Source: Schmidtea polychroa
Lineage: Eukaryota
Direction: 5' to 3'
Assembly: GCA_044892525.1 (NCBI GenBank)
Contig: CM097885.1
Location: 20,646,001-20,710,000 of the forward strand
DNA length: 64,000 nucleotides
A model generated the notes under the pieces. That model made no database searches, was not told the DNA's origin, and saw only the letters and a program-made list of their open reading frames with translations. Every line of letters starts with the position of its first letter. Position 1 is the first letter of the stretch. Shown here piece by piece: positions 1 through 46,917 of this stretch. Made by a program: the position numbers and the translations under genes.

Positions 1-5
1 TGATA

Positions 6-2081
6 ATGGATGGCGACAAACGACTGATGTGCTTACCGGAAAGTAGGCGGAAAGAAATTATGATTCAATATCATGACGGTAAATTGGGCGGACATATGTC
101 AGCTAAGAAAACAGAAGCAAGGCTCAAACAGAAATATTACTGGCCAAATATGAGCAATGACGTGAAAGAATGGATAAAGAACTGCTTGATATGCGCAACC
201 AGAAAAACAACGGGCAGTAAACTAAAGCCGCCATTGAAACCAATGCCAATACCGCCAGAACCAATGACAATGATCGCAATGGATGTAGTTGGACCACTAC
301 CAGAGACTAACAGTGGAAATGTGTATATATTGGTAATAACTGATTATCTGACTAAGTTCCCTGAAGCATTTGCGATGCCAGACCAAAAAGCACGAACGGT
401 TGCAAGGATATTAGTGGAAGAGATCTGCTGCAGATATGGAACTCCAAAACAAATCTTAACTGACCAAGGAACAAATTTCATGAGCGAGATAATAAATGAA
501 GTGACAAATTATTTTAGAATTGCCAAATTGAGAACCTCGCCATACCACCCGCAAACGAATGGTCAGACAGAAAGATTTAACGGCATACTAATAGACATGA
601 TGTCAAATTACGTGAGTAAACATCAAAAGGACTGGGATGAATATATTAAGTTGTGTCTAATGGCTTATCGAATGTCAATACACTCAGCAACGAAAATGAG
701 TCCGTTTAAACTCATGTATGGAAGGGAATGCAACATGCCGATGGATCTCGAATACCAACCGCCAATCTCACAATATATGGAAATAGATGATTATGTGACA
801 AAGTTCAAAGAGAGAATGCAAGAAATATGGAAAACCGCAGGGATGAACATCCGATTCAACCAAGAAAGTTATAAGGAATTGCATGATAAAAAGAAGAACG
901 TGCAAAACCATCAATTTAAAGTCGGAGATTGGGTTATTATAGAAACACCCGAATTAATCCCAGGAACAGCAAAGAAATTACAACGTAATGGCAGAGGGCC
1001 ATATGAAATCATCTATGTAAACGAGAACAACGCTAGAGTGAAGTTGGTTAACAACCCACTAATTAGACCCATTTATGTGAATACATGTCGATGTAAAGCA
1101 GTAGCGAAAACTGCCACTAAAGACCCAGAAACAAGGAAGATAATCACGAGATCACAAACAAATGCCACAACGGAATCAGAAGTAAGCGGTAGATTAACTA
1201 GATCACAGACAAGACGGATATTCATGCTGAGGGGAGAAACAAGCGGCAGCACCAATAAAGGAACCGAAGCAGAAAGCGAAGCTGACGCAATGGCAAGGAG
1301 CCAAGCAACATGGAATATGACAGTAAAAATAGCACGAGAAATTGTGCCAGAATGGGCTGATATAACCAATAAATACCAAGTATTACGCAAACTAATGATA
1401 GTAGCAGAAAGATATGCGAAAGGATTAAGATATGCCGAAGGATTACAAATACCGATTCAAATATATGAACTAATCCGGAGGTTACCAATCATGTTCCTAA
1501 CAAGTGATTTGAGCAATAATTGGCCAATCCATCATGCAGTCGAAGCAGGACAGGAAAAACGAGCATTAGAGATCATACGTATAATGGAAAACTGCAAACA
1601 ATCGACAAACGTCAAAAACAGTAAAGGGAAAACTCCATTGATGAAAGCCATAGCAATAGGCGCGTCAAGGGAAGTACTCAGAGAATTATTGAGAACGGGA
1701 TCTACGTTGAAAGAAAAAGATAACAAACAACGAACCATCTTACGTTACGCCGTCAGGTCAAAAAGACCTAGCATACTAAACTTCATCACGGGAAATGCAA
1801 CAACCGAAGAAGCCGAGGTGTTGGGACAGAGCATTGAACCAATTCTGGAAGCCATCAGAGGAAACTTAGACAGAACAGCAGCAATATTGACCAAATGGAA
1901 ACAAAACGAATTAAGAGCGGAAGTAATTGATATAAATCAATTCCAAAACAACGAAAATATCGTACTAAGAAGCGCTACATACGATGAAAAAGCAACTAGA
2001 AATACTAGTGTGGGAATGGCACCGGAAACAACGGAAATATCAAGGGACCAAAGAAGAACGAGAAAGTATCCACAACGATAA
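6..2081 (+). CDS. Pol C-terminus: integrase (H2C2 zinc domain, DDE core, C-terminal GPY/F-SH3-like region) fused to ankyrin repeats
   Basis: HDGKLGGH...CLIC zinc motif; DVVGP / TDQGTNF / TERFN catalytic core; GPY motif; ankyrin-type repeats NWPIHHAVEAG, GKTPLMKAIAIGASREVLRELL and QRTILRYAVRS. 5' end is truncated by the window. Confidence 0.95.
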   Translation: MDGDKRLMCLPESRRKEIMIQYHDGKLGGHMSAKKTEARLKQKYYWPNMSNDVKEWIKNCLICATRKTTGSKLKPPLKPMPIPPEPMTMIAMDVVGPLPETNSGNVYILVITDYLTKFPEAFAMPDQKARTVARILVEEICCRYGTPKQILTDQGTNFMSEIINEVTNYFRIAKLRTSPYHPQTNGQTERFNGILIDMMSNYVSKHQKDWDEYIKLCLMAYRMSIHSATKMSPFKLMYGRECNMPMDLEYQPPISQYMEIDDYVTKFKERMQEIWKTAGMNIRFNQESYKELHDKKKNVQNHQFKVGDWVIIETPELIPGTAKKLQRNGRGPYEIIYVNENNARVKLVNNPLIRPIYVNTCRCKAVAKTATKDPETRKIITRSQTNATTESEVSGRLTRSQTRRIFMLRGETSGSTNKGTEAESEADAMARSQATWNMTVKIAREIVPEWADITNKYQVLRKLMIVAERYAKGLRYAEGLQIPIQIYELIRRLPIMFLTSDLSNNWPIHHAVEAGQEKRALEIIRIMENCKQSTNVKNSKGKTPLMKAIAIGASREVLRELLRTGSTLKEKDNKQRTILRYAVRSKRPSILNFITGNATTEEAEVLGQSIEPILEAIRGNLDRTAAILTKWKQNELRAEVIDINQFQNNENIVLRSATYDEKATRNTSVGMAPETTEISRDQRRTRKYPQR

Positions 2082-3909
2082 AAAAGAGATAATTAAAAAA
2101 TACGAAGAGATGATCAAAGCGACAAATGTCGAGGACGACATTTTTTGGAAAACCCCGGGTGAGAGGAATGACGATGGTGATGACGACGAAAAAACAGAGG
2201 ATAACGACAAAAACCCAGAGGGAAATGACAGAAAACGGAATCCAGAAGGTGGAGAAACAACGGACGATGATGAGGAGTTGGAAGAAGACGAAGAGGACCA
2301 ATGCCGAGGTGAAGATCAAGGATTCGACAAAACAGAAAACAAAAAGCGAAAGTCCCCACTACACAGCATAGTATTTCGGAATCAAATCCAGCCAATCCTA
2401 CTACAAAGAATATTTATAATACTAACATCTATCTGTTTAACGGAAACAAAAAATATGAGAATCGTAAGAGAAGCTTTCCAAGAAGGCGAAGTATTTATGA
2501 TAAAAGTCAGCGATTACGACGGAAACGCCGTCGGAATATGTGTGCAACTAATGGAAGGAACAGGGGTAAGTTGTGATTTCAGATCGATAACAAAAGGAAA
2601 GATCTTTAGCAGCCAAAAAAGAGACCCCAGGCTATGCGGAGATTATGACATCTGTAGGGACATAACAACAGAGGAAATGGAACTAGAAAGAGCCAATGAA
2701 ACCGGAGTACATTTCCAACTTAACATTTTGGAAGAAGGTATCGAAATAGAAGATAAAGGGAGTCGATCAATTACACATGTATGCATCAGAGAAGACAGAG
2801 ATATATGCATAATAACAGATACGACACAAGACCACAAATTCTTCTGGGGAGAAGTCAAACCAAATACCCCTACTGTGGTATACGCAGGAACACAAGGGAT
2901 AGTAGTATGTAAAGGAACAAGAACTGCACCAAGAAAAGACAAACCAAAGAGTATGGCAATGAAACAAGGTCCATTGATGGAGATAGCAACCAAGAAGCCA
3001 AACAAATCGGTTAGTACAAAAACAACAACAGAACAAAATCAAACCGAATTAATAAAAACAACAACATGGATTAACGAAGTAATTAAAGACGAAAGACGGG
3101 AAGTGCAGATAACTATCAACCTCAACAAGAAAGGTGAAGAGGTAATTACAGTCAAAAACCAAGAAGGAGAACCAATAATAAGGATATGTGTAATGGATAA
3201 GACGGGAATAATCGACTGTACAACAACACCGATAGACAAAGATGCAGACGTTAAAATGGAGACAGGGAAACGGAAAGAGCGATACCAAGTATGTATCCTT
3301 AAGAATGGAAGAGGAACCAGCGTATGTCAACCAATAACTCGACAAAAACCCCAATTAATAAACATACCGTGGATACCCCGAGATCAGGAAGGGGGAGAGA
3401 AACGGGAAAATCACAGCCACCTAACAGAAAAAGAGAAGGAACGATTACATCAAGCATTCAAGAAAATCAAAGCACCAGAAACAAACACCACAGGTAGTAC
3501 AATATTAACGACAGTAAAAACAAATAATGGAACAACGATAATCACAAAGATGATATGGATAACTAGCGCGATAGTAAGCACGATAATAGCGTTAGCAATG
3601 ATTCAGTGGATAAGAACCACCAAAAGATGTAAACAAAAACCGAGAAACCGAAGAGAATGGCCAAAGGTAGAAAAATTTGAATACGGTATTCCAACGGAGA
3701 ATCTGAATCTAGAAGAATACGAGGTGGTAGAGGATTCCGGATCCAGCGGATTGTGGATGTCGGAATTACCAAGAATATCCACACCCAACGAATGGACACA
3801 CGAAGTCGATATATACCGACTAACAAACGAAAGATATGGGGGATGCGCACGTTGCATTCCGGCCCCATGGCGACACTGGTATAACAAGAGGAGGAGCTGT
3901 TGTAAATAA
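1984..3909 (+). CDS. Acidic linker plus repeated Cys-pair beta-rich domain plus single TM helix (membrane protein in env-like position). Overlaps the pol end in the +1 frame
   Basis: 641 aa ORF with a D/E-rich tract; hydrophobic ILLQRIFIILTSICL; four similar motifs (ICVQLMEGTGVSC, VCIREDRDICII, ICVMDKTGIIDC, VCILKNGRGTSVC); TM MIWITSAIVSTIIALAMIQWI followed by a basic stop-transfer segment. Confidence 0.7.
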   Translation: MKKQLEILVWEWHRKQRKYQGTKEERESIHNDKKEIIKKYEEMIKATNVEDDIFWKTPGERNDDGDDDEKTEDNDKNPEGNDRKRNPEGGETTDDDEELEEDEEDQCRGEDQGFDKTENKKRKSPLHSIVFRNQIQPILLQRIFIILTSICLTETKNMRIVREAFQEGEVFMIKVSDYDGNAVGICVQLMEGTGVSCDFRSITKGKIFSSQKRDPRLCGDYDICRDITTEEMELERANETGVHFQLNILEEGIEIEDKGSRSITHVCIREDRDICIITDTTQDHKFFWGEVKPNTPTVVYAGTQGIVVCKGTRTAPRKDKPKSMAMKQGPLMEIATKKPNKSVSTKTTTEQNQTELIKTTTWINEVIKDERREVQITINLNKKGEEVITVKNQEGEPIIRICVMDKTGIIDCTTTPIDKDADVKMETGKRKERYQVCILKNGRGTSVCQPITRQKPQLINIPWIPRDQEGGEKRENHSHLTEKEKERLHQAFKKIKAPETNTTGSTILTTVKTNNGTTIITKMIWITSAIVSTIIALAMIQWIRTTKRCKQKPRNRREWPKVEKFEYGIPTENLNLEEYEVVEDSGSSGLWMSELPRISTPNEWTHEVDIYRLTNERYGGCARCIPAPWRHWYNKRRSCCK

Positions 3910-4031
3910 TGTATAAATGGAATGATAAAAGTAGTGATAATAGTAGTAACATGTACAAAATAAAAGTAGTAAATTAAAACAATATGTAGAAAATCAAAAA
4001 CAAGTATGATGACCATGTATTATAAATAGGA

Positions 4032-4487
4032 ATGAACCAGAGAAACGAAGAGCAGGAACACCCAAATGGGATACCACATGTTGTTGAAGTAAGAGAACAG
4101 CCGCTTATGAATGTACATCCAGTAGACATGATGGAGATGAACGTGCCAAACCAGCCGAGTCAGCCAACAGGATACATGTGGAGGGCACAGTGTGAATTAA
4201 TGACCCAATTGACAAATCAGACTCAAGAGCACTGGGTACGAAACCAAACGGCGTTGATAGAGAGTATTAATAGAAATGCAATATATATTACAAAAATAGA
4301 GGAACAACACCAAATAATCGCGCAACTGGAATATAATAACAATCAGTTAATAAGCCAAATCAGATGGCAAGCGGAAGAAATTAGAAGGTTACACCAAAAT
4401 CGACAACATGATGATATTGCCAGTTTAGTCGAATGGATGACCGGGCTACCAGGAACTGGGGAACCGGACTCGACGGTAGATGTATAG
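4032..4487 (+). CDS. Small Q/N-rich coiled-coil cargo protein, unknown function
   Basis: 151 aa ORF with ATG preceded by AG, heptad-like central segment, and the same composition as its neighbours. Confidence 0.65.
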   Translation: MNQRNEEQEHPNGIPHVVEVREQPLMNVHPVDMMEMNVPNQPSQPTGYMWRAQCELMTQLTNQTQEHWVRNQTALIESINRNAIYITKIEEQHQIIAQLEYNNNQLISQIRWQAEEIRRLHQNRQHDDIASLVEWMTGLPGTGEPDSTVDV

Positions 4488-4576
4488 GAGAGAAAGGAGT
4501 GAAATGTAAATAATCCTGTAAATAAATAGAGTTATAATCAAGTAGAAATCCCAAGATTAAAAATCATCATTGTAGA

Positions 4577-6001
4577 ATGCAAAACAAAGCGGAAGAGAAC
4601 CGGAGAGAAGCAGAGGAACAAAAGATTAACTATGAATTGATGAGAAAATATCAAGCCAAGCCGGACGAGTTCGAAGAGAGGCTATTATGTGCCGATGCAG
4701 CATGTAGAAGACTACTGATTGGAGCAAGTCAAACTCGATGCGGGTGTAGATTATGCCGAGGGTGTGATATAAGATTAGCCAAGCTAAAGCGAGAAACTTG
4801 TCCAGGATGTGGAGAAGCATTTAAGTTGGTTCCCACTGGCACGATACCGGATAGAGCAATGAACCGAGAAATCAGAGAAGTGAAAATAAGATGCACCCAA
4901 AGGTCATGCGAATGGACAGGTCGAGTAAAGGAGTTAAGAGCCCACACAGACGTATGCGAATATCTAGAATTGGAATGCGAAGCATGCACGGTAAAGTTTT
5001 TTCGAAAAGAGAAAACCAAACATAAAGGGGAATGCGAAGCGCGAACGGAAAAATGCGAATTTTGCGGAGAAACTGCTAATTGGAGAGAAATCGAAATGGA
5101 ATATCGAAACGCAGTAGAAAGACGGATTTGCGACGAATATACAGGGAGATGCCCAAACGAGTGTGGAGAAATTAACAACGTCAGATTAAATGAACATTGG
5201 GAGATATGCACGAGAAAGACGATAAAATGCCCAATGGTAACATTCGATTGTAGAGTACAATTACCAGCAGAAGAAATGAAGAAGCATGTGGAGGAGAATA
5301 CATTCGAGCACATGCAAAAGATGATGAGAGCAATAGAGTTAACAGCAAGGGCAATCGAAGATGTTAAAGACGAACTCAAATCACATAAAATCATGATAAA
5401 AGAAATGCTGAGCTCACAGGAAAGCTTCGAAAATACGAGAGAAGCCGTAACACAAAGGATGTTGAAATTAGATGACAAATTAGTCGAAGTAACTAAACTA
5501 CAAACCAAATGGACTGCAAAGGAACTGACAACAGAGGAACTACCAATATTGCCATATATGTGGAAAATCCAAGGAATAACAGAAATAATGGAGCAAGCAA
5601 AGCAAGGAATCCGGACAACGATAGTGAGCAAACCATTCTACGCCAAGAAACATGGATACAAGATGAAATTGAGATGGTTTCCAAATGGTGAAGGAAAGTT
5701 TAAAGATCGGTGCATGTCCATGTATATGCAAATCTGTAAAGGAGATTTTGACGACCTAATAGCATGGCCATTCCGACATAGATTAAAAATATCTCTCTTA
5801 GGATCAAAAAAGACACATATAATGTGCTGTCGAGCATCCAGTCCAGCATGGAATAAACCGAGTACAGAGGTTAATCCTGCGGTAGGAGTAGCAGAGTTTA
5901 TGCAGCTATACCAATTTAATGAAGGGTCCTACATAGAAAAGGACACTATATTCTTCCTAATCGAACTAGACGAGGAAGGACCAACAATAGAAATACGATA
6001 G
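4577..6001 (+). CDS. TRAF-family protein (variant RING, TRAF zinc fingers, coiled coil, MATH/TRAF-C domain)
   Basis: RING-like CADAAC..CGCRLCRGC..CPGC; TRAF zinc fingers (CTQRSCEWTG..HTDVC; CPNECG..HWEIC; CPMVTFDC..H); MATH hallmarks YMWKIQG, SKPFY..HGYKMKLRWFPNG, SMYMQICKGDFDDLIAWPF and IEKDTIFF. Confidence 0.95.
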   Translation: MQNKAEENRREAEEQKINYELMRKYQAKPDEFEERLLCADAACRRLLIGASQTRCGCRLCRGCDIRLAKLKRETCPGCGEAFKLVPTGTIPDRAMNREIREVKIRCTQRSCEWTGRVKELRAHTDVCEYLELECEACTVKFFRKEKTKHKGECEARTEKCEFCGETANWREIEMEYRNAVERRICDEYTGRCPNECGEINNVRLNEHWEICTRKTIKCPMVTFDCRVQLPAEEMKKHVEENTFEHMQKMMRAIELTARAIEDVKDELKSHKIMIKEMLSSQESFENTREAVTQRMLKLDDKLVEVTKLQTKWTAKELTTEELPILPYMWKIQGITEIMEQAKQGIRTTIVSKPFYAKKHGYKMKLRWFPNGEGKFKDRCMSMYMQICKGDFDDLIAWPFRHRLKISLLGSKKTHIMCCRASSPAWNKPSTEVNPAVGVAEFMQLYQFNEGSYIEKDTIFFLIELDEEGPTIEIR

Positions 6002-6141
6002 ACGGATAGAAGGGAACTGTAAATATTTTGTAAAAACGATGTAAAGCAAATATAAAATTATTGTATACAGTAAAGTAACTTACCAAAACTATAAAAATTA
6101 GAAAAAGAAAATGCAAAAAGAAATGATGAAATTTATTATAG

Positions 6142-7320
6142 ATGATTAATCAAGAGAAACCGAATATCCGAAAGAAAACGATCACAATGAGAGAGGAAGA
6201 GGACAATACATCACCTAGAGAAAGAATGAAGGATGCGGAACTCAGCAAAACAAAACCAAGTAGTTACGCGTATTATCGAAGAATGGGAAATGATTATAAT
6301 TTGGTACATGAAAATTTGAAACTGGGAGATAATGAACAATTCAGATGTGAGAACCAGAGATATCTGTCATTTGAACATCAGACCATTTTCACCAAGGAAC
6401 AGAGCCGAGCGCTAGCACGCGACGGATTTTTCTTCTCCGGAAAACCAGATATACCCGATCAAGTAACGTGTCGTTTCTGTAAAGGGAAATTAGCAGAATG
6501 GAAAAAAGGAGAACACCCAAAGGAGGAACACCGTAAACGATTTCCAACTTGTCTATTCGTACTGGGATTTGATGTACACAACAAACCGGAAATCAAATAC
6601 GAAGCCTTGGAGAAATTGAAAACTGAAGACGAAAAAGGAGGGAAAATGAGCATCGCGATAACCAGAATCGTTGACGAATATGTTCCAACTTGTGAAGGTG
6701 AATTCCTCACGCAAATAGCAGATAACAGAATGAAAACGTTCGGAGATGATACGAGAGGACCTGAACTAGCAATAAGAGGATTCTTCCTAACAGAAAAGCA
6801 AATACTCAAGTGTGAAAGATGCGAAAGCCAACAGAAATTACCGGAAGAAGGCATACCAGAAATTAGACATCAAGCATGGTGCCTGTACCACAACGAACAA
6901 GAAACCGAATACCCAGAAGTGCTAGTAACAGAGGAAGAGGTTGACGAAGTGGTAGACAAACCCAACATGTGCAGAGCGTTGAAAGCAGCCGGAATAGGCA
7001 CGACAAGGGCAAAGAACATGATTAGAGAGAGACTACAGAAAAACGTACATATACCAACAACAACGTACGATATGATCAGAGCGATAACTCAGTATAGAGA
7101 AAAACCTGAAACAAAAATAAAAGAAGAATCAATGGTCAAAGCAGCTATCTTACGAGATATCAAATGTACTATGTGTTGGGAGAGGAGTGTAGAAGTTATT
7201 CATATGCCATGCGGACATTTGATCGCATGTGCTACGTGTAGTAGAAAAGTAAAGGAATGTCCGATGTGCAGACAGAGGATTGCGCAGCGAATCAAAGGGT
7301 TTCGCTACGCCGATCAATAA
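6142..7320 (+). CDS. Inhibitor of apoptosis (IAP) protein: one canonical BIR, one degenerate BIR, C-terminal RING
   Basis: BIR LARDGFFF...CRFC-x16-H-x6-C is a perfect zinc signature. The second BIR-like unit LAIRGFF..CERC-x15-H-x3-C is degenerate. C-terminal RING is CTMCWERSVEVIHMPCGHLIACATCSRKVKECPMCR. Confidence 0.95.
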   Translation: MINQEKPNIRKKTITMREEEDNTSPRERMKDAELSKTKPSSYAYYRRMGNDYNLVHENLKLGDNEQFRCENQRYLSFEHQTIFTKEQSRALARDGFFFSGKPDIPDQVTCRFCKGKLAEWKKGEHPKEEHRKRFPTCLFVLGFDVHNKPEIKYEALEKLKTEDEKGGKMSIAITRIVDEYVPTCEGEFLTQIADNRMKTFGDDTRGPELAIRGFFLTEKQILKCERCESQQKLPEEGIPEIRHQAWCLYHNEQETEYPEVLVTEEEVDEVVDKPNMCRALKAAGIGTTRAKNMIRERLQKNVHIPTTTYDMIRAITQYREKPETKIKEESMVKAAILRDIKCTMCWERSVEVIHMPCGHLIACATCSRKVKECPMCRQRIAQRIKGFRYADQ

Positions 7321-7402
7321 CAAAAATTAAAATTCCGTGTATAAAGTGTAGATAATAAATGTATGAAATAATAGTGGTAGTAATAGTGTAATTATTTAGA
7401 CA

Positions 7403-9001
7403 ATGAATAAAGAATCACAAACCTATGTGGAAACCGAGATGCAACAACTGGAACAGTACAAATCCATCATACAAACATACGAAGCAGAAAGAGTAAAGAG
7501 AGAAATAGAAATGTACAAAACCATGTATGAGAAAAAGCAACAAGAATTAGAAGTGGAGAAGGCGGAAGCACTGGCAGCAAAGGAGAAGTGGATGAAACAG
7601 GTAGAGGAATTAACCGAGGATGTGAGAAATACCTCAACATACCAAGAATTGGAGGAAGAGCTCTCGAATTTACGAACTCAGCGGATTATGGAGATAGTTG
7701 GGTTATGCGGAGAGATAATAATGCAGAAGGCACAAATTAGAGAAGCAAAGGAACAATACGAGGAGGAACAGCGTAAATCAGAACGAATAAAATTACAGGC
7801 GCAACAATGGAAGGGGAAAAATGAAACACTCCTAACAAGGCAGAATGATAGCCACGAACATCAAATACGAAATTACAAGGCCGAACTAAAAGAAGTAAAG
7901 GGCAAATGCGCAATGATGAAAGAAAAATGGGAAAGATGCAAAAAGACCCTAAACGAAGTCAGAGGGCAAGGGAGGAGAACACCGCATAGAGAACCAATTG
8001 TTAAAGATAACGTATTAGAACGAATTAACACACAAATAAAGATACAAGCTCAGAAATGGAAGTATAAATACCTAGGAAGTCAAACTCAAGTGCTCTATTG
8101 GAAAATCAGTAGCAAGGAACAACTGCGATTACGAAAAGCAGACCAAGAATTTTACGAAACAAGAGCTGCACAGCGAGAAGAAGAGGAAGTAGAGTGGAGA
8201 AAACGACAGCAGAAATTCGAAGAAACCGAAAAGTGTCTCAAGCACCAAGCCCGAAAATGGAAAGAGAATTGGAAAGAAACCAAAGAGGAATTAAGACAGT
8301 TGCCTATGAAACTGATGGAAAGAGACGAATTTAAAATGTGGGAAATGATAGAAAACCAAAAGGAGGAGATCAGCCGATTGAGTAGAGAACATAGAATCAA
8401 GACGCGGACCAGCGACGGTAGACGGAGAGTTATAAAGAAACAGACTCGAGAAATAAGAAGATATGAATACCAGGAAAAGAGATGGGAACAACAATTGACA
8501 GACCAAGATCGACAGATCCGACAATTTCAAACAGAGGTAGAGGAAGCTAATCAAGAGATGAACGGATATAAAGGTATGTACACCCAAAGGGATGTGAATT
8601 GGAAGCATCAGATTGCGCTTAATGCGAAATGTAGAGAGGAGTGCGATAAGGCAATTCAACAAGCCAAACAGGAAACCGAGATAATAAAACGATGCTTCGA
8701 AGAAAATGAAGCGAATCTGAGAGCAGAAATCGAGAAGTTGAAAATGCTTGAAAAAACCCAACGATTGGAAGAGGAATTGGATGAGATGATAGAAAACGAA
8801 AGTAGATTAACGTTTCTGTTGGATGAAGAAATAAACATCTCAACGGAATTGCGGGAGGAAGTAGATCGGTTAAGAAGACAACCACCAATATTATTAATGC
8901 CACTCTACCCGATCCCGTTGCAAGTGCCACAGCCTGCCGAAGTCACAACAGATGAAGGCTTCGAAGAAAATAACGAACAAAATAACGAAACATGGATTTA
9001 G
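7403..9001 (+). CDS. Long coiled-coil cargo protein (532 aa)
   Basis: E/K/Q/R-rich helical sequence throughout with a Pro-rich tail; no catalytic motif recognised. Confidence 0.75.
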   Translation: MNKESQTYVETEMQQLEQYKSIIQTYEAERVKREIEMYKTMYEKKQQELEVEKAEALAAKEKWMKQVEELTEDVRNTSTYQELEEELSNLRTQRIMEIVGLCGEIIMQKAQIREAKEQYEEEQRKSERIKLQAQQWKGKNETLLTRQNDSHEHQIRNYKAELKEVKGKCAMMKEKWERCKKTLNEVRGQGRRTPHREPIVKDNVLERINTQIKIQAQKWKYKYLGSQTQVLYWKISSKEQLRLRKADQEFYETRAAQREEEEVEWRKRQQKFEETEKCLKHQARKWKENWKETKEELRQLPMKLMERDEFKMWEMIENQKEEISRLSREHRIKTRTSDGRRRVIKKQTREIRRYEYQEKRWEQQLTDQDRQIRQFQTEVEEANQEMNGYKGMYTQRDVNWKHQIALNAKCREECDKAIQQAKQETEIIKRCFEENEANLRAEIEKLKMLEKTQRLEEELDEMIENESRLTFLLDEEINISTELREEVDRLRRQPPILLMPLYPIPLQVPQPAEVTTDEGFEENNEQNNETWI

Positions 9002-9129
9002 TCGAAGGGAGATGTTACATGTAAAAAAAAAAAAAAAACCATAAAGCCAAAACCAAATAAAATTACAAAACCAAAAATTCAAAATAAAAGGGGGACGAAA
9101 GGAAATATGATGTGTATATTTTTGTAGAT

Positions 9130-9894
9130 ATGAATTATTTAAAAGAAAGAGAATCAACGAGTAACGCAAGAAAATCAATTGACCAACCTGAACAAAGCCA
9201 GAATACGATACCAATCAAACAAGAACCGATGAAATATTATAGCAATAAATGGAGAGTCAGCAAGTTGTTCAAAACAAAAATTGCAAATCAAAATGTAGAG
9301 ATTACGAGATTGAGACAGCACATTGTTCAATGAAGACGATTAATAAACACTGTCAAGCAAGAAATTTTGAGGGAAATAAATGAATCGAAACTAAAAGAGA
9401 CGGAAAATAAAAACCTGAGACAAGAGATAGTAGAGTTGAGAGCTCAGGCAGTAATCGAAGACTATTGGAAATCAGAAACAAGGAAGTTGAAAAAGATTGT
9501 GAATATCGACCAAGTTTATATCAAACAATTGGAAGCACAATACGCTTATGCAAAAACGAAAATGCGAGAAAGTAAAAAGGTCGACAAGAGAAACGCAAAA
9601 CTCAAGGAGGAGATCAAGGAACAAAGAGAAGAAACAGAAAAACAATGGAAGTTGAAAGAAAATTACCGGAGAATCCTAAATCAAAAACGACGAAGCATGC
9701 AAGCATTGCAGACGGCAATAACCATCAAGCAGAGAAAATGGAAAAGTAAAGAGAAGCAATTACAAGAAATACCGGAATTAAAGAGACAGTTGATAGCAAC
9801 GCAACTCGAAGTAATAAGAATGAACGAGTTGAGCAAAAGACGAGCACCTGAACCTCCCGTAAAGTTAAGGGATGAGGTCGGTGACTCCCAATAA
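9130..9894 (+). pseudogene. Coiled-coil cargo ORF interrupted by one in-frame TGA (9331-9333)
   Basis: ORFs 9112-9333 and 9367-9894 are in the same frame, separated by a stop and 11 open codons. The likely ATG is at 9130, after TTTGTAG. Confidence 0.7.
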
Positions 9895-9970
9895 ATGAGA
9901 CAAAATAACTGTGTAAATAAATTGTAAATAAAGCCAAGTAATTATTATTAACGTATATGTATATGTAAAG

Positions 9971-10957
9971 ATGAGAAGCGTAATCGTGGTGATAATTATA
10001 ATGACAATGCCAAGAATCCTGCATGCTGAAGAATCAATGATCAGATGCCAGAAAGAATACCCATACCGTAGAGAAGATAGCACCTGTAGTAGCTTTAAAT
10101 CGATCTGCGAAAAACCCAATGAGGAATGCGAACAAATCAAGTTACAATGTTCGCAATGTCCACAAACAACCGAAAGTTCGACGGAAATGCAAATGGCTCA
10201 GACAATAAAAACAATATTAGAACAAGAAATGAAAGTTATCAGAACCCAGATAACAACATTAGCCAAACAATGTCAAAGTCAGAAATCAAAGAGAGAATCC
10301 CAAACAGATCCAGCCGCAATGAGAATGATGATAAAAATATTAGAGGGGATAAAACAACAAGTAGTAACAGCTACCAATGGACGTTCAAGTAATTACGAAA
10401 TGGTAGTGAAATCTTTAAAGGAAATGAAAGGAAAAATAACTTCCATCATCAAAGAGGAACCCAGCATTAAAAATGAGGTAACGAAAACCTTGAAAGAAAT
10501 GACAAGGGAAATCTTAACGACCATAAACAAAAACCCAATGAACTCCGAGAAGATGATTAAAACCCTGGAGGAAATAAAGAAAGTTGTCACCTCGGAAGAA
10601 AACAAATTCAACAAACCCGAAAAATCAGAGATTATAGATACAACCCAATTGGGAGAAATCGTAAACAAACCCAAAGTAATAGAACCGAGAGAGTCTGAAT
10701 CTCTCACAATATTGATCCTATTAGCGGCGAGCCTAATGATAAACATCACCGTACTGAGCCTGATTGCACTCAAACCCAATTCCAGTAAAGAAAGAAACAA
10801 AACCCTCAAACTAAAAGAACAATCAAGAAGTATTCGTATCCCAATGGAAGAACAGCTAATCCAAACAACGAACCAACCAAGATACTTCAAATCTTCCCCA
10901 AACATTGAAACCAGAGCCGTCATCGAGACGAGATCCCGAACAACAGAGTTCTATTAA
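9971..10957 (+). CDS. Type I membrane protein: signal peptide, Cys-rich N-terminus, helical repeats, TM helix, ~60 aa cytoplasmic tail
   Basis: MRSVIVVIIIMTMPRILHA signal; 6-7 Cys; repeats such as MMIKILEGIK / MVVKSLKEMK / VTKTLKEMT / MIKTLEEIK; TM LTILILLAASLMINITVLSLIAL. Confidence 0.8.
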   Translation: MRSVIVVIIIMTMPRILHAEESMIRCQKEYPYRREDSTCSSFKSICEKPNEECEQIKLQCSQCPQTTESSTEMQMAQTIKTILEQEMKVIRTQITTLAKQCQSQKSKRESQTDPAAMRMMIKILEGIKQQVVTATNGRSSNYEMVVKSLKEMKGKITSIIKEEPSIKNEVTKTLKEMTREILTTINKNPMNSEKMIKTLEEIKKVVTSEENKFNKPEKSEIIDTTQLGEIVNKPKVIEPRESESLTILILLAASLMINITVLSLIALKPNSSKERNKTLKLKEQSRSIRIPMEEQLIQTTNQPRYFKSSPNIETRAVIETRSRTTEFY

Positions 10958-11038
10958 TGTGACATCATGACAGTATAAACATTTCAGGACATTATAAAAC
11001 ATTATCAAACAATCGCGATTTCAAAGACGGAGACTGAT

Positions 11039-11984
11039 TGTGACTAATAACATTGATTCTTGAGCATGATAATTTTATTTTATGTGGACCGACCTCGGTC
11101 GTTCTTTTTCTTCATCTTTCAACCCATCTGTAAAATGTAGTGTAATAGTAGCATTTTTATGTATGTGGGTATTGAGGTCACGACCCTGTAGCTCGTGGAC
11201 CCAATTTGCATGTAGGCACTTGTAATATAGTGCAAGTATTCTGAAAATTAATCTTGTTCATCTTCTGATTTAAATTGCGGGTCGCAATTTTATGGGCCCC
11301 CGAGTGTTTTATGTTGGGCTAGAACTGAATTCTAGACCCAAAATACACATTGTGACTGAAATGTGTAGGTACACAGCAAGTAAAAAAGCACCAAGTATAA
11401 TTAAATATTAAAACCTACACCAAATAAACAATGGTAATTAAACAGAGAAAACAACAAGAATAATAAACACACAAATTAAATAAAATTATACAAAAGCAAG
11501 AAGTTATGCAAAATCTAACTCAAAAATAACCAAATAGACATAGAATTACCAAAAGCAAACTCGAATAACTTAAAAGATGGTAAAAACAGTAAAAAATTCC
11601 AGAAAAACCCAGAACATTCCATTAAAATGGCGATGACCATCACAAAAGCCATAAAAGTTAGAGAAAATAAATAAATTAGTATTAAAAATAATAAATCTTA
11701 AAAAGAAATTCATAAAACACCAGGTGGAATAAAAATTAAATTAAAAGTAAAATAGAATGTTCTGGAACCGTTCCAAATCCATCATGGACGTCAAATTAAC
11801 GAAAAATAATTAAAAAATAAAATTTTAAAAATAAAAACAAAAATTATGGCATAAAAATTGCCATTAAAAATATCGAAATTACAAAATAGAAAATTCTGGA
11901 ATAAAAAGAATTCGAGTTTGTTTTAATGCATCAATACATACACGTGTACAAAATAGGTATATATACTGACACGTTTCAGTCACA
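11039..11984 (+). repeat. Candidate 3' LTR (or its start) of the giant Gypsy element; contains a 17-bp inverted-repeat-bounded sub-segment 11350-11985
   Basis: TGTGAC follows a PPT-like run, and GTCACA occurs at 11979-11984. TTGTGACTGAAATGTGT (11350-11366) matches the reverse complement of 11969-11985 at 16/17. No second LTR is in the window to confirm. Confidence 0.4.
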
Positions 11985-13199
11985 AATCAGCACTTTTTGC
12001 CAATAAATTTTTGTTCAAAGAAAATTTTGTCCAGGAAACTAGCAGTAAGTAGTTTTCCTTTTTGGTATTTATTATTTTTTTCATTAATATTGGTATTTTT
12101 ATGTTTTAAATGTAAAATTATTTTAATGAATTTAATTGATCTTAACCTTTCATCTAACTTAGTTTTACCTTTTTGACTAATCAGCGACATCTTAGTGCGT
12201 CGCTATTTAGTCCTGCATTTAACATTGATTTTAAATGACAATTCACAGGCAGACAAGCAATATATTTTATATAAAATTTTTTTTTGTTTGGTCATCGGAG
12301 GTCGGCCACTTCATGGTTCTACTATGGAGTTGTGTCGGTAAAACCCCTCCGCTATGGCTCCATATATTTATTTATCGGTCGACAGCGATGTTTCGACCCA
12401 ACATTACAATAGGGCTTGTCGTAGCGGTCACAGTGGGGCCGTGTAAGCAATCATTCTTCCCGAGTTCCAATGCAGCACATATTTAAAATCAACATTAAAA
12501 ATCTCATACATTACTTCACACTAAGGTCATAATTGAGTAGATCTCAGACCCAAATTAAACACAGCAATTACAATTCAGTTAATGTAGTCGGTTAAGACCT
12601 CTCCACTTATGCGTCTGTCGAACATCGTTAGTAAATAAAAATTTTTTTTAAAGATGTGAGGATTTTGCTCGGATCTGATTATGATGATAGCATCTCGAAG
12701 TTCGACAAGCGTAAAGGATGGAATAGATTCAATTAAGTATAAAACCCCCAGCGAGTAGTATATATCCTGATCTCAGGATTAAAAGATAGTATTGCCAATA
12801 CCCAAATCAATCAGGAGTTAGGGTTATATTATAACTTCTTTTATTTTTCATTTATAAATCAATATCAATGAAGCATTATTATTTTAGAAAATGTAATATC
12901 ACCAATTATAAACTATTATCGATAAAACCTTTTCAATTTGTAAATAAAACTTTTTATGTAGATGTCTATTCAACTATAAACTTATGTCTATTCAACTGTA
13001 AAGCTATATTAACAACTATAACATAGATATGCGTGATCCTAACTTACTATTCAATTCATCCCTCAATTAGGAATTACAATCGAGAAACTCGTATAAAATT
13101 GTAAATGATCTTATCGATAAAGGATAAATCTTACTTGAGTTTATATACTAGGTCTAAACTAAGAGTCTCCCGCAATCGTTTAACTATGAGTGTATACTT

Positions 13200-14021
13200 G
13201 TTAGCTTATATATAAAACATGGATTAAAGGTATAATCTGATCGTTAAACTACTAAATATATATTGGTTAAATTATAAAAGGTGATTATAATTATGTATAT
13301 AATATAAGTCAAAAATATGCTCTAATCATTAAACCATAAGATGAAGATTAGTTAAATTATAAATTATGACTATAAACTGTATATAAAATCTAAATCAAAA
13401 ATATACTAAACTATAAAGTACCTATTAGATAAAAATATAACTACAAATTATTTATAAAAAATGATATATATAAATTATAAAATAGAATTATAACTTGTAT
13501 AGAAAGTATAAATTAAAAGTATATTCTGATCATGAATTCTAAATTATATCATAAAAGATAGTATATATATAGTTATGTATTAATTATATGAGTAGCTAAA
13601 ATAGAATTATAACTGGTATAGAAAGTATAAATTAAAGGTATATTCTGATCATGAATTCTAAATTATATCATAAAATATAGTATATATATAGTTATGTATT
13701 AATTATATGAGTAGGTTATTCCTAAAAACCCAAACTACAACTAATTATAGATAAAATTTCAATTACCAGAATATAAACTGTAATTAATTATATATAAACA
13801 TTGAGCGTAAATTATAAAGTACAATTCATTATATATGAAACTTATCGGTGTATTATTCCTAAATAGGTAAATTATGAATAAATTTTGGTTACAAAATATA
13901 AATTATAACTAATTATATATTTTGATTATGAAGTACAAAGTGTAAATAATTAGGTAGATTATATAAATATATGGCTCTTAAAAATTTAAATTATAAACGG
14001 TGTAAATTATAAATCATGATA

Positions 14022-14060
<39 letters not shown>
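13200..14060. repeat. AT-rich degenerate TATAAATTATA-type array with a ~107 bp direct duplication, ending in a (TA)n microsatellite
   Basis: Recurrent AAATATAAATTATA units; a near-identical block at ~13479-13590 and ~13598-13710; (TA)n at ~14024-14056. Confidence 0.75.
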
Positions 14061-14061
<1 letters not shown>

Positions 14062-15436
14062 ATATAAATTATCTAGGTATTCCAAAAGATAGTTATAGAT
14101 GAATATTAGTTACAGCAGTAAATGATTACACTCAATTTCCGAGCTTTAAAAAGCTCAATTATAGATAGTCGTATTGCGAACCATTATATACATATTACGA
14201 ATGGTAAAGATCCCTGCAAAATGGTAATATAGCAATCCGAGATATAAATCTGGAAAATGACAAGTACCTATAAGATGCGGTCAAAATTTGTTCTACCTCT
14301 GAATCAGGTATTATAATATGACATTCTAAATCACGGGTGTTAAGGTTTCAACACCCGACAATGTTTTAGCTATTTATACCTCTATTGACTATCAAAATGA
14401 TTATGGGAGTAAAAATCAGTTGTTAAATTATTTCGCACACAAAGTAGAGATTGACCTACAATGTTCCAGTGGTGGCCTGTTTAAAAGTGACCTGAGACTC
14501 GGATCTTCCAAAAATCTTAGCATGATCGCTCCAGGAATAGGGTTTCTAGAAACCGGTGTCGTTCAAGCATAACCTATAAAATCACATCAATAAGGTAATG
14601 ACAAAGGATACCCTAAGCTCTTATAGAATCAATGGTGACGATACAACGTATGAGTGGAATATGGTCTATAAATTAATAGACAACTTACTAAATTCCCATA
14701 AAGCAAAATTCCAAAAACGCCGACGAGAATTGAGGGCAGGTTAACGTTGAAAATCAAAGAAACTTTCCATAGGAGACAGGTCGGAATCATGACCCACTTT
14801 CATGTCAAAACCTGAAAGCGCATATACCTGAATTGCTAAAGTTGTTATGAATATATTAGCAGTATGCACCCCTCGAACGACTTCACCAACGAAGGAGCAT
14901 TGGAACCCAGTTCCACAATAAACCCGTTCGCCAGCGAAATCTTTCTCTAGGGCTAATTACATCAAAATAGCATAAGCTGAATCATAACAATCCAGCCTAA
15001 ATATAATTGCAAATAGAATATATGCCACGATGTAAATAATTATGTAATAATGTTAATTCAATAAAACAACCAGATTTCTGTTTTAATTTTTTCTAATAAA
15101 AGTTAACCAAACCAAAAATTCGACGATTTGGGAACAACCACGAGCAAAATATAAATTTTCGGGGTACAATATTTCTCTTTGTGGTTACTTACTGCACAGG
15201 TAATAATTCGTTAGGATGTTTTCTTCCGATGTTTCTAGGTTGAGGCTATAGGGTGATGATAAGTAACGACTCCCCATTTTTGCTATAAATTTGTCATCTA
15301 ATTCACGACAAGGCACACTATCATCAGTAGGGAGTAACTATTCGCTCGAATCACGGCTTTACGTCTTAGTAGAATGATAAAAAAGATGAAATTTCAAGAA
15401 GAAAATCAGCATTAACCATTTTCATTTAATCATAGA

Positions 15437-15799
15437 ACGTCGCAAGCAAGTGGTCCCGACGAAGCGGAATATAGGCAAATGATAACGCGGCTCCGGACCC
15501 GGTACATCTGGTACCGGATCCACGATTGGAATCGGGGGTTGGACCTAGATAATTATGGTCCGGTCATTCGGAGTGGCCCAGAGCCCGATGCCCCGGCGTG
15601 GGTGAAAGTAGAGCCCACTAACAACGTGCTCCGGGAAGCCCGCGATCGAGCGGCCGATGAGGTAGTAGAGGCCCAAAAGCGGCTGAGGAGACTCGAGCTC
15701 CAACTCAAGGCCGAAACGTTGGGGATAGCTCTTGAAGAGCTGGAGGAGACCGATGCCCCTCCACGAAAACGGGGGAGGCCCCGCAAGAACCCGGCCTAA
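15437..15799 (+). CDS. AT-hook protein, copy 1 (start codon ATG>ACG relative to copy 2; next Met at 15479)
   Basis: C-terminal PRKRGRPRK AT-hook motif, acidic patch and short coiled coil; close paralogue of 19609-19971. Confidence 0.65.
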   Translation, partial: TSQASGPDEAEYRQMITRLRTRYIWYRIHDWNRGLDLDNYGPVIRSGPEPDAPAWVKVEPTNNVLREARDRAADEVVEAQKRLRRLELQLKAETLGIALEELEETDAPPRKRGRPRKNPA

Positions 15800-16089
15800 C
15801 TTATCGACAACCGCGGCCTGAATAAAACGATTTTTACTGATCTTATTTAGTGATATTTTAGTAACATAACGAATTGTATTTCTCTTTTGTTTATCAAACA
15901 TAATCTATCGTGTAGTAATGCAATAAATTATATTTTTTTTTATTTATACTTTGGGCTTTACAGCTAATGGGGCGTATTCATAATTGAGGTGACCCTTTTC
16001 TCATCACCCACTTATAAATTCCATGCATGTACTCTAACCAACTTTGCGCACCAGAAGGCGAATGAGGGGATTTATTATTATTTTCTTCA

Positions 16090-16575
16090 GTGTACCAGTT
16101 ATTGGAAAACCTACGAAAGGACCGCGAACAGGCCCAGCAACAATCCGAGGGTCTCCGAGGTCGGATCGAAAAACTCAAGCTGAAGTATCGAGAACTCCAA
16201 GGTACCTGGTTCAGCCCAGCCGAGATGAAAAAACAGAAGACCCACATCTCGCAAATCCAGACCCAGGCAGAGCAAGACCAACTCGAGATTCGGGCGTTGA
16301 AACTACAAGTACGCTCTCTCGAAAGCAAATTGAATGAAAACCTCATACAAGACGCCCTCCAAGAGCAGATCCGCCCTCTCCAGGTGGAGCTAGCCAGAAT
16401 ATACCCACCAGCCCCGACAGGCAAGCCGAAACGTAAACGGCTCGGGCGGAATACCCGCGACAAATTGAAAAGGGCCTGGCTGGCCGAGCAGGAGAAGTTG
16501 AAAGAGGCTGGGGCCAATCCACGTTCCCAAAAGACGTTCGAGAATGCGACCCTCCTGAATAAACCAACTCTGTAA
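16090..16575 (+). CDS. Coiled-coil protein with basic NLS-like motif, copy 1 (probably a spliced 3' exon)
   Basis: Begins at the acceptor TTTTCTTCAG; KPKRKRLGRN motif; paralogue of 20297-20736. Confidence 0.6.
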   Translation: MYQLLENLRKDREQAQQQSEGLRGRIEKLKLKYRELQGTWFSPAEMKKQKTHISQIQTQAEQDQLEIRALKLQVRSLESKLNENLIQDALQEQIRPLQVELARIYPPAPTGKPKRKRLGRNTRDKLKRAWLAEQEKLKEAGANPRSQKTFENATLLNKPTL

Positions 16576-17199
16576 AACAGTAGTGATTTAATAAATGATT
16601 CTGGTTGTGTAATAAATATATGATCGAACTTTACGTTGACTTAAACCAAAAGGATTGGTAGAAAAGCGTGTGGGAAAACAATCTCGACGAGGGACCAAAA
16701 CAAATCGGACACGTGCCTCCTATCGGCGTCCGTGAACCCATCGAGTACTCGACAATTATAGTGCCTCGATGCGCTCACTTTTTGCGAGTACTCAACCCTT
16801 GGTACAGTACCAACGTTGATTGCTCAACGGGTACCAAGCGGAAAAACAATGTTGTATTCTGGGTTACGCTGGTAACAGCACTTAAACATTCAACCACCAG
16901 TAACCCACCAATATAATGCTTTACCAAGTTGTATAAGTATAACTCATAGACATACAATCATAAAACATAATCGATTTTAAATCTAGCATTCTCAGATTCC
17001 GAGTTAAAATCATAATTTATAAATGTATATAATCTTACTTTATAGCCTTATGCTTTATCTAGTATATACTTCCCTAATGCCTAAACTGGAAACTATAATT
17101 ATATCAGCTAAGAAATCTAGATTAAAAACTATAATTTTTTATAGAACGTGCAAATATCTCAGCCTAAAAATATAACTTATAAAGACTCGAATTATAAAA

Positions 17200-18200
17200 T
17201 ATAATCTTATGCTAATTTTGAAATCTGACTTATAAATATGAGAGGCTATGTATAGATTATATATGTATGATGATAATAAAAAATAAGCCCTAAACCCAAA
17301 ATACGACATATAAATGGTAACTGTATCTCGATTATTAAGTATAAATTATAAATGGTTATATATAAATTATAAATGTATCTTAATTATAAAAATACAATCT
17401 AAAAATAATTATACATAAAATTTCAATTATAGAAATATAATTTATAAATAGTTATATGTAAATTATTAAAATATAATCTATAAAGAATTATACCTAAAAT
17501 TTTATAAAAATATAATTTATCAATAGTTATATACAAATCTGAATTTAAAAATATAAAGTATAAATGGTTATATGTAAATTATCAATGTATCTTAATTATA
17601 AAATACGATCTACAAATGGTTATACATAAAATTTTGGCTATGAAAATATAATTTCTAAATAGTTATGTATAAATTTGGATTTAAGAATATAAATTATAAA
17701 TAGTTACATATAATTATATATATACATGGACCTTAAAAATATAAACTATAAATAGTTAGGGATACACTTTACTTACAAAACTATAAATTATAAATAATTA
17801 TAAAAAAATTTTGATTACAAAATATAAAGTATAAATAGTTATATATAAATTATATACGCATATTGACCATAAAAATATAATCTATATATAGTTACGAATA
17901 AATTTTACTTACAAAAATATAAATTATAAATAATTATATAAAAATATAATTTATAACTAGTAATATATAAATTATAATTGTAGTTTGACTATAAAATACT
18001 AATTATAAACAGTCATATATAACTTCTGATCTTAAAAGGCACGAATTCTAGATAGTTATATAAAGTTACAAATGCAACTAGATTATAAAATAAAAACCAT
18101 AAATAATTATATTTAAATTATGAACGGATCTGGGTTATCGAAATATATATCATAAATAGTACTATAAAATTATGTGTAAGGATGTTAATTATAAGTTTGT
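17200..18200. repeat. Second AT-rich TATAAATTATAAATAGTTAT degenerate tandem array
   Basis: Many imperfect ~40-60 bp units of AAAATATAAATTATAAATAGTTAT. Confidence 0.75.
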
Positions 18201-27353: not shown

Positions 27354-27381
27354 AAAAATATCTGAGAATTCAACAACTATT

Positions 27382-28041: not shown

Positions 28042-28087
28042 ACAATCATTACATTCAGAATTATGGTCTTCAAAAAATTATCATTGC

Positions 28088-40790: not shown

Positions 40791-40820
40791 AAAAAACTTT
40801 AATCTTTTAAATTTCTTCAT

Positions 40821-44623: not shown

Positions 44624-44678
44624 TACAACAGGAAGATTTAAAATTCAAATTAAGATTTGGTAATGATTGACCCATTGT

Positions 44679-46876: not shown

Positions 46877-46917
<41 letters not shown>

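Follow-up and report, generated by a model that had tools for sequence, protein, structure and literature searches.

The window analysed here, a stretch of 64,000 nucleotides from Schmidtea polychroa contig CM097885.1, contains the 3' half of a retrotransposon, 36.5 kb long and present in high copy number, that belongs to a known kind, the Burro elements of planarians. The complete element measures 36,556 bp and occurs in hundreds of copies in the genome. Its LTRs, at L012:355-5944 (5') and window 11312-16910 (3'), are 99.68% identical (9 mismatches and 2 gaps over 5,599 alignment columns), and a target-site duplication, ATAT, flanks the element on both sides. All the ORFs described below sit between the two LTRs, confirming the earlier placement of the cargo within the element. 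A survey with the TRAF and IAP genes as query returned 418 candidates, with 40/40 scored matches at 97-100%, and reading frames, gene order and variants were counted in 36 other copies. The following features were identified:

3..1160, + strand: integrase (zinc finger and core) of the gag-env-pol polyprotein (PF17921, E 5.5e-22; rve, PF00665, 3.2e-13)
1503..1800, + strand: two to three ankyrin repeats fused in frame behind the integrase (Ank_2, E 3.5e-8, residues 509-596; shared-variant dN/dS 0.15)
1969..3909, + strand: C-terminal part of the polyprotein, with an acidic linker, a hydrophobic stretch (2386-2442), a Cys-containing domain, a transmembrane span (3550-3606) and a 100-aa tail (dN/dS 0.19)
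4032..4487, + strand: accessory ORF, 151 aa, probable coiled coil of no known family (open in 32/36 copies; dN/dS 0.08)
4577..6001, + strand: accessory TRAF, full-length, intronless, 474 aa, with RING, zinc fingers, coiled coil and MATH (TRAF matches in Pfam and PDB; open in 33/36 copies; dN/dS 0.12)
6142..7320, + strand: IAP, 392 aa, with one clear BIR (E 2.6e-15) and a C-terminal C3HC4 RING (E 3.2e-12), from Pfam and PDB (open in 34/36 copies; dN/dS 0.19)
7403..9001, + strand: accessory ORF, 532 aa, coiled-coil-like (open in 28/36 copies; dN/dS 0.17)
9130..9894, + strand: second coiled-coil-like accessory ORF, with a stop at 9331-9333 in the window copy (open frame of 261-269 aa in 31/36 other copies; dN/dS 0.20)
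9971..10957, + strand: type I membrane protein, 328 aa, with a signal peptide, a six-Cys domain (10046-10159), a helical stalk, a transmembrane span (10709-10765) and a 63-aa tail
11312..16910, + strand: 3' LTR, TG...CA, about 5.6 kb, followed by ATAT

The start of the polyprotein lies outside the window, some 10 kb before it, and this upstream part (L011) contains gag, MATH, env, protease, RT and RNase H. By domain order, env (PF24664, E 7.5e-63) lies in frame between gag and protease. Between protease and RT, where Burro elements have a dUTPase-like motif, Pfam gave no match. A single frame of 4,791 aa, including MATH, is open in several copies and interrupted at several places in the window copy. 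The upstream region supplies parts absent from the earlier note, namely a second MATH domain, a further RING gene, env and a stretch resembling BCL2, and the element encodes three RING-type ligases (TRAF, IAP and the upstream RING). A ubiquitin-like stretch with a weak Pfam match (E 0.009) is located before MATH. The best PDB match of the BCL2-like stretch was Bcl-xL, also weak (E 0.53), with 30/36 of the weak matches named Bcl-xL or Bcl-X-type, and the stretch can be aligned with the part of a third element family that matches Bcl-2.

Integrase and ankyrin repeats share one open frame (window 3-2081), and a break near 1969-2081 splits the C-terminal part from the integrase in the window copy, whilst from ankyrin repeats to transmembrane span a single frame is open in 27/36 other copies. 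The ankyrin repeats reported earlier downstream of the integrase are thus present but are no separate gene, and their assignment to the IkB class fails: IkB is a stand-alone protein with six to seven ankyrin repeats, and here two to three lie within the integrase/polyprotein frame. Similarly, both hydrophobic spans behind the two single-pass membrane proteins of the earlier note are typical of type I proteins, but the first belongs to the split-off polyprotein tail rather than to an ORF of its own. Neither Pfam nor the Atlas gave a usable match for this C-terminal part, and the family of its Cys-containing domain was not found. A PxExT motif in its tail was rejected (altered in 7/36 copies; 28% chance).

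The full-length TRAF and the IAP with intact BIR and RING were correctly recognized from the outset. The TRAF frame (4538-6001) encodes zf-TRAF and MATH (Pfam E 1.3e-27), and its N-terminal RING matches TRAF6, TRAF2 and TRAF5 RING regions in the PDB. A host-type CGC motif in the RING supports a probable host origin. Two host TRAFs (L131 and L132) show 45% and 42% identity to the polyprotein MATH and have groove residues in common with it, whilst the accessory MATH is 30-35% identical to everything compared. Its groove keeps the equivalent of R393, has F at the Y395 position and reads S-P-A at the serine triad, and so departs from the TRAF1/2/3/5-type receptor-binding residues (serine triad plus R393/Y395), a human rule that may not transfer because host TRAFs also deviate (S-T-C, S-A-C). 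In a MATH tree that left out L137 (internal stop), both element domains fell on long branches with weak support and neither was placed, therefore no donor gene is named. A complex predicted for the accessory MATH and the 60-aa tail scored a median of 0.12 against a mark of 0.34 and is given no weight for or against binding. A cluster of host TRAFs is genuinely present in the genome besides the element copies, and host TRAFs govern cell survival in S. mediterranea according to the available text of PMC7586133.

In the IAP, the BIR pattern CxxC-16-H-6-C is accompanied by the C-terminal RING, and the zinc ligands are preserved both in this copy and in 34 (BIR) and 35 (RING) of the 36 others; a second, degenerate BIR-like stretch was seen by eye only. 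Shared variants within the BIR alone (4 N / 3 S, p 0.18) are too few to show selection. Against the PDB, the BIR scored 49.7 bits with XIAP BIR2 and 45.0 bits (4.7 lower) with the cIAP2 BIR1 chain 3m0a_D, which we take to come from a TRAF2-BIR1 complex. Word-indexed protein searches returned two mollusc IAPs as the sole relatives of the IAP, no relative of the accessory TRAF or the last ORF, and no Burro sequence among the matches.

Hydropathy and motif reading gave the last ORF a type I topology with a cytoplasmic TRAF-type motif, PMEEQ at 10841-10855. Its P-x-E-E is kept in 35/35 readable copies and comes up by chance in 6.8% of cases when the tail is shuffled; P-x-E-E is a TRAF1/2/3/5 consensus (PMC6125299). 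The six-Cys domain (spacing 12-6-6-6-2) has shared variants of N/S = 0/11. A cellular homologue (P0004), whose own tail carries a PxExxZ motif, matches the ORF at E 1.5e-6, and a homologous host exon pair lies at G000:C3:118678218, which supports the ectodomain having been captured from an intron-containing host gene. The claim of host gene capture is thus supported for the TRAF, through its CGC motif, and for this membrane protein. The protein bears a weak resemblance to single-domain TNF receptors: in the Atlas, the clusters closest to it are those of Grindelwald, TACI/BCMA, Wengen and Fn14-type receptors (0.75-0.81, a lead only), and with Grindelwald, BCMA, TACI and Fn14, as covered in the available text of PMC8024323, it has in common a signal peptide, one small Cys-rich domain with, as predicted, two C-terminal helices, a transmembrane span and a TRAF-type motif in a short tail. 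In contrast to these, it has a long helical stalk, and whereas Grindelwald has eight Cys (C-x3-C-x11-C-x3-C), the six of the element are spaced differently and do not fit the C2 consensus (PMC8024323, available text). The six-Cys domain had no TNFR match in Pfam, no match among PDB sequences and no fold match, its small model (pLDDT 63.6, two C-terminal helices predicted) returning nothing in fold searches. Searches of genome G000 for Rel-homology, TNF and TACI domains, run without a positive control, gave nothing usable.

The earlier note had overlooked three accessory ORFs (4032-4487, 7403-9001 and 9130-9894, the last broken in the window copy). Homologues in a sister family are 28% identical for the 151-aa ORF and 33% for the 532-aa ORF, which had no Pfam match and is possibly the 'Smc' motif reported for Burro1. 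In 6/7 accessory ORFs, TAG stands 0-3 nt before the ATG (AAG in the seventh) compared with 16/302 background ATGs (p ~1e-5, post hoc), and the sister element has TAG or AAG there in 7/7 ORFs. The recurrence of AG just before the ATG in so diverged a family suggests that each accessory ORF may be carried on a separate spliced mRNA. Four contig sets, taken only tentatively to be RNA, gave no splice joints or loose ends at predicted acceptors among the matches listed, and contigs cross some of these acceptors unspliced. No record that carries the stretch is registered as RNA, and the contigs speak neither to splicing nor to expression level. AATAAA in the spacers was set aside as a poly(A) signal because it is expected by chance at 50% A.

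Every cargo ORF is under purifying selection, a result new to this study. Variants common to at least two copies gave dN/dS of 0.08-0.33 in all eight cargo regions (binomial p <= 1e-7), compared with 0.00-0.03 in RT, IN and env, and contained no stops in any region; a third-position excess agrees with this, a non-coding control stretch also being mildly third-position biased (p 0.02). Cargo gene order is unchanged in 36/36 copies, so that the retention of ORFs, order and non-neutral dN/dS expected of other copies is borne out. Neutral hitch-hiking of host sequence would accord with singleton variants, which lie nearer neutrality (TRAF 0.64, last ORF 0.52) and include stops, and with all seven frames being open together in only 19/36 copies. 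However, shared variants are strongly synonymous and stop-free, and gene order and homology persist in a sister family diverged to 25-33% protein identity, making this explanation extremely improbable and refuting it for the replicating lineage. Selection thus shows that the replicating element benefits from its cargo, without identifying the pathway served.

The proposed identity as a Burro-type Gypsy element was upheld by length, LTRs, polyprotein layout and the MATH/TRAF, BIR and ankyrin parts. Burro1/GYPSM1 of Schmidtea mediterranea, compared by description and not by sequence, likewise exceeds 30 kb with long LTRs; its polyprotein has 4,873 aa (4,791 aa here), and both elements combine Gag with three CCHC knuckles, MATH, a ubiquitin-like and a BCL2-like stretch (both weak matches here), an in-frame env between gag and pol, PR-RT-RH-IN, and ankyrin and BIR motifs (PMC6431247). 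The ubiquitin-like domain of Burro1 lies between MATH and BCL2 rather than before MATH, and the Burro1 text (PMC6431247) is silent on a complete TRAF gene (RING, zinc finger, MATH) behind pol, on a membrane protein of receptor type, on tests of selection and on how the genes are expressed, although some of these ORFs may be drawn in its figure or in the original annotations. In a Burro-like element of Dugesia tigrina, MATH is on an upstream accessory ORF that replaces the polyprotein domain (PMC6431247), whereas the present element has two MATH domains, the accessory one downstream; the D. tigrina MATH being an accessory ORF shows that modules move between polyprotein and accessory genes. The sister family found here resembles that element in having no polyprotein MATH. 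The literature, searched mostly without subscription journals, figures and supplements, yielded no described Burro receptor or spliced accessory genes. The one sister copy examined keeps the gene order and TRAF and is without BIR, polyprotein MATH, Cys domain and PxEE; the RING gene, TRAF and coiled-coil ORFs are conserved between families, but BIR is not. The third family has BCL2 and env, but 30 kb of sequence from each of 3 copies gave no homologue of TRAF or IAP. The cargo is thus modular. BCL2-like domains also turn up in that family and in Maverick-like elements within this genome, which suggests repeated selection for anti-death cargo. Large DNA viruses have captured IAP, BCL2, TRAF and receptor homologues as anti-death or signalling cargo, and complex retroviruses have many spliced accessory ORFs behind pol; the carrier here differs in being an endogenous LTR retroelement of an invertebrate. 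Burro1/GYPSM1 was reportedly described in Jurka 2007 and Grohme 2018, and its death-pathway domains are said to have been noted since 2007.

The pathway-level idea, presented earlier as previously unknown, is therefore not new, because PMC6431247 already names TRAF/MATH, BIR, ankyrin, BCL2 and env as parts of Burro and puts forward an interference with apoptosis and ubiquitination, leaving the role of the death-pathway domains as a possibility awaiting confirmation. We hold it somewhat probable that the accessory genes of this enveloped Burro-type Gypsy element (full TRAF, IAP, host-derived receptor-like membrane protein and coiled-coil proteins), themselves under purifying selection, do not form a single closed circuit but modulate the cell-death and ubiquitin machinery of the host separately. 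Each would be expressed from its own spliced mRNA via the AG before its ATG. The IAP would restrain caspases or their activators through BIR and RING, the polyprotein BCL2-like domain would back it against cell death, and the PxEE tail of the membrane protein would recruit TRAF domains, with host TRAFs or the host-like polyprotein MATH more plausible partners than the element's own diverged TRAF. Cells with an active element would then likely survive long enough to transmit new insertions.

Alternatively, the ligases and membrane proteins could mainly serve replication, through ubiquitin-dependent budding or trafficking of Gag and Env or by destroying host silencing or restriction factors, and their likeness to survival pathways would reflect which E3 scaffolds were available. 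The env, the three RING-type ligases, the weak ubiquitin-like stretch and the conservation between families of the RING gene, TRAF and coiled-coil ORFs, but not BIR, are consistent with this role, which the BIR and BCL2-like domains, being death-pathway modules, render rather unlikely. In the available text of PMC8532177, Burro is a PIWI target, in line with a replication role. To be set against the reading as separate modulators, BURRO1 RNAi left the smedwi-2 phenotype unchanged (PMC8532177), which addresses a different question but gives no sign of a survival effect. That membrane protein, TRAF and IAP form one element-encoded receptor complex signalling survival alone, the self-contained kit of the earlier note, is unlikely and not supported. 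The three genes are adjacent and conserved together in the family, the best Atlas lead is a TNF-receptor type, P-x-E-E is invariant with a counterpart in the P0004 tail, and cIAP2 BIR1 falls little below XIAP BIR2; yet in the sister copy TRAF persists although BIR, Cys domain and motif are missing, the BIR is slightly nearer XIAP BIR2, the accessory MATH has an altered serine triad and Y395 position, the Cys domain has neither a Pfam TNFR match nor the Grindelwald C2 spacing, and the ankyrin part is no more than a short extension of the integrase. In S. mediterranea, moreover, no clear homologue of NF-kB was identified (PMC13563047). A bolder form, in which a TNF-receptor-like protein from a previously unannotated host receptor gene would bring TRAF and IAP together in a survival complex that needs no ligand, its components made from their own spliced (possibly spliced-leader trans-spliced) messages, is quite doubtful; if true, it would constitute a retrotransposon-borne receptor signalling module and operon.

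The six-cysteine membrane protein leads back to a gene for a host receptor without family assignment. Among strong BIR matches in the genome, 29 of the 30 loci checked belong to the element, which also supplies many of the MATH matches; element copies can therefore inflate planarian TRAF and IAP gene counts. Ultimately, the gene list provides concrete targets in an RNAi-tractable animal group.

Over window positions 1-11,000 the plus strand carries a series of purine-rich ORFs, and the 40 kb upstream supplies the rest of an element of 36,556 bp, flanked by ATAT at both ends. Pfam agrees with the integrase, ankyrin, TRAF and BIR plus RING assignments made in the earlier note, and these ORFs do lie inside an LTR pair (L012 and L011 are upstream sequence).

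Features of the element and lesions of its window copy
L012:355-5944, 5' LTR
Just inside the 5' LTR, small RING gene
Upstream of the window, gag with three CCHC knuckles, part of the polyprotein
Upstream of the window, protease, RT and RNase H
Window 3-2081 (+), integrase and ankyrin (Pfam)
Window 4538-6001 (+), TRAF (Pfam)
Window 6142-7320 (+), BIR plus RING, the IAP (Pfam)
Window 11312-16910, 3' LTR
Near L011 783-864, 3764-3995 and 5470-5521, polyprotein frame changes
L011 8419-8421 and 9466-9468, polyprotein stops
Near window 1969-2081, polyprotein frame change

The upstream sequence also contains a viral fusion glycoprotein (E 7.5e-63), a weak ubiquitin-like match and a second MATH domain besides that of the accessory TRAF. 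The two LTRs differ by 9 mismatches and 2 gaps over 5,599 columns; the insertion is recent, and the polyprotein is broken in the window copy. A candidate primer-binding site resembling tRNA-Pro lies 8 nt past the 5' LTR end (L012:5953-5970), and no clear polypurine tract was found ahead of the 3' LTR. The LTR includes a 169-aa plus-strand ORF with no family match (window 16066-16575).

The element is nested in an older related LTR (77-83% identical), the 5' part of which lies upstream (L013:7557-9918) and the 3' part downstream (window 17300-21124). Directly downstream of these nested LTRs lie exons from a host gene for an ABC-F-type ATPase (window 21371-24609; ABCF1-like by eye), followed by pieces of two ordinary Gypsy elements, one on each strand (window 26484-32266). 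A Maverick/Polinton-like element with long inverted terminal repeats (window 33988-50659) has a polymerase-like 1012-aa ORF and A32-like ATPase, integrase-like and capsid-sized ORFs, together with a Bcl-2-like gene interrupted at a microsatellite (window 48173-48706, minus strand). A multi-copy 152-aa Bcl-2 ORF (E 1.3e-7; L184:4705-5160 and L187:5260-5715) likewise lies near integrase-like and capsid-sized ORFs, apparently in another Maverick-like family with anti-death cargo.

Matched against the description in PMC6431247, the architecture, size and 4,791-aa open polyprotein frame place the element with the Burro kind, as the earlier note had suggested. Burro1/GYPSM1 has MATH/TRAF, BIR, ankyrin, Smc and BCL2-like domains, an in-frame env and a polyprotein of 4,873 aa, compared with 4,791 aa here, and its apoptosis and ubiquitin domains have been taken to suggest meddling with those host systems (PMC6431247). 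Our literature search found no account of a Burro-borne receptor, cargo selection or spliced accessory genes.

A DNA search with TRAF plus IAP returned 418 candidates, and all 40 that were scored were full-length at 97-100%. Of the 39 other copies, 36 were compared over the cargo region, three that sit on small contigs being omitted, and 20 over the upstream region; the sample is made up of the copies nearest to the window and is therefore poor in older ones. All 36 were collinear with the window, and an LTR start was visible at the end of 31. Frames were open in 32 of 36 for the 151-aa ORF, 33 for TRAF, 34 for IAP, 28 for the 532-aa ORF, and 31 each for the second coiled-coil ORF and the last ORF; all seven, with ankyrin-to-TM counted as one frame, were open together in 19. 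Because ankyrin-to-TM is one open frame in 27/36 copies, the first of the two membrane proteins proposed earlier is the polyprotein C-terminus, leaving the last ORF (window 9971-10957) as a membrane protein.

Variants were divided into singletons and those shared by at least two copies, with dN/dS calculated on each. Shared-variant dN/dS was 0.00 for IN, 0.01 for RT and 0.03 for env; within the polyprotein-borne cargo it was 0.15 for ankyrin, 0.19 for the tail and 0.27 for MATH, and among accessory genes 0.08 for the 151-aa ORF, 0.12 for TRAF, 0.19 for IAP, 0.17 and 0.20 for the coiled-coil ORFs and 0.33 for the last ORF. No stops occurred among shared variants, and singletons were nearer neutrality (TRAF 60 N/25 S); the BIR alone gave 4 N/3 S, too few to inform. 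Since such counting ignores transition bias, codon positions were checked as well: third positions hold 58-73% of shared variants in all eight cargo regions, and TRAF and last-ORF singletons are spread evenly; a non-coding control, at 50%, itself had a mild third-position bias (p 0.02). Neutral hitch-hiking of the cargo is rejected on the shared-variant dN/dS and this third-position excess, and the expectation that other copies would conserve a selected cargo in the same order is borne out (36/36; dN/dS 0.08-0.33).

Accessory ORFs are separated by AT-rich spacers of 76-140 nt. TAG lies 0-3 nt from the ATG in six of seven and AAG in the seventh, whereas the region as a whole has TAG at 16/302 ATGs and the make-up of the spacers predicts 0.11 (p about 1e-5, the pattern having been spotted ahead of the test). 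The 12 nt preceding the AG are 54% pyrimidine versus 32% elsewhere, the AG is retained in 36/36 copies, and TAG or AAG precedes the ORF in 7/7 cases in a sister family. These AGs read as a series of putative splice acceptors, which could be used from a shared 5' donor or through spliced-leader trans-splicing, a process that occurs in planarians (PMC10899757). Among the matches listed in contigs of four runs, whose RNA status is guessed and which lose rare forms, no splice joints fell at the predicted acceptors.

Whether the last ORF is TNFR-like we judge an evenly balanced question. Its nearest Atlas clusters are Grindelwald, TACI/BCMA, Wengen and Fn14-type (0.75-0.81, under the 0.9 line), and no TNFR match came from Pfam, from PDB sequences or from two fold searches. 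Two C-terminal helices in the predicted model (pLDDT 63.6) are compatible with, and not proof of, the helix-loop-helix module described in PMC8024323, although the cysteine spacing differs from that given there. In the tail, PMEEQ fits Px(Q/E)E, the TRAF-binding consensus in PMC6125299; it is invariant in 35/35 readable copies and expected by chance in 6.8% of tail shuffles.

Among 1.84 billion representatives the last ORF had a single match, P0004 (E 1.5e-6), a 244-aa cellular homologue with a signal peptide, six cysteines as in the last ORF, a TM and a tail. The top match of P0004 in the genome (56%) is a locus at C3:118678218 where a 46-nt GT-AG intron interrupts the cysteine domain; it has no similarity to the element coding region, and later exons were not found within 30 kb. 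The remaining 149 rows agree with element copies, judged by frame length. Given this intron-containing homologue, the ectodomain is, on sequence grounds, host-derived by capture. The RING motif is CGC in all 23 found among 30 other TRAF loci and in the element TRAF, whereas human TRAF6 and TRAF2 have CGH, a comparison covering the S. polychroa genome and human only. Identity to all TRAFs compared is 30-35% for the accessory MATH; the polyprotein MATH reaches 45% and 42% with host TRAFs L131 and L132, and a MATH tree did not resolve donors. At G000:C2:105-124 Mb and L131-L136, two-exon host TRAF genes form a large cluster in this genome, and several intronless full-length TRAFs, which may be host genes or mobile, lie elsewhere.

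The earlier note saw in this cargo a self-contained survival-signalling kit; its observations stand in part and its interpretation is partly supported. A closed receptor-TRAF-IAP circuit, for which the tail motif would provide a contact, seems unlikely. The accessory MATH carries F in place of Y395 and S-P-A in place of the serine triad, and the BIR is marginally nearer XIAP BIR2 than cIAP2 BIR1. The ankyrins are short and joined to the integrase, which does not fit the IkB class to which they had been likened, and PMC13563047 reports only divergent Rel-domain genes in S. mediterranea, with a clear NF-kB homologue not found. The sister family (one copy examined, L189:1566 to L192:2156; near-identical LTRs) also speaks against a self-contained kit: it keeps TRAF and the accessory gene order at 33% TRAF and 86% RT identity, while in this copy BIR and the polyprotein MATH are absent, and the last ORF encodes a type I membrane protein that lacks both the cysteine domain and a TRAF motif. 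Its LTR contains a 254-aa ORF.

A third family (L174-L182) has BCL2 and env, in a 3,050-3,090-aa gag-BCL2-env-pol frame, and none of the element's TRAF/IAP-type accessory genes; a 777-aa ORF follows its polyprotein, with no Pfam family and a DEDDh-exonuclease-like stretch by eye. The element's cargo thus looks like a modular set that changes between families, and the mechanism we somewhat favour is that its products, derived from the host and each expressed separately, would modulate death and ubiquitin signalling.
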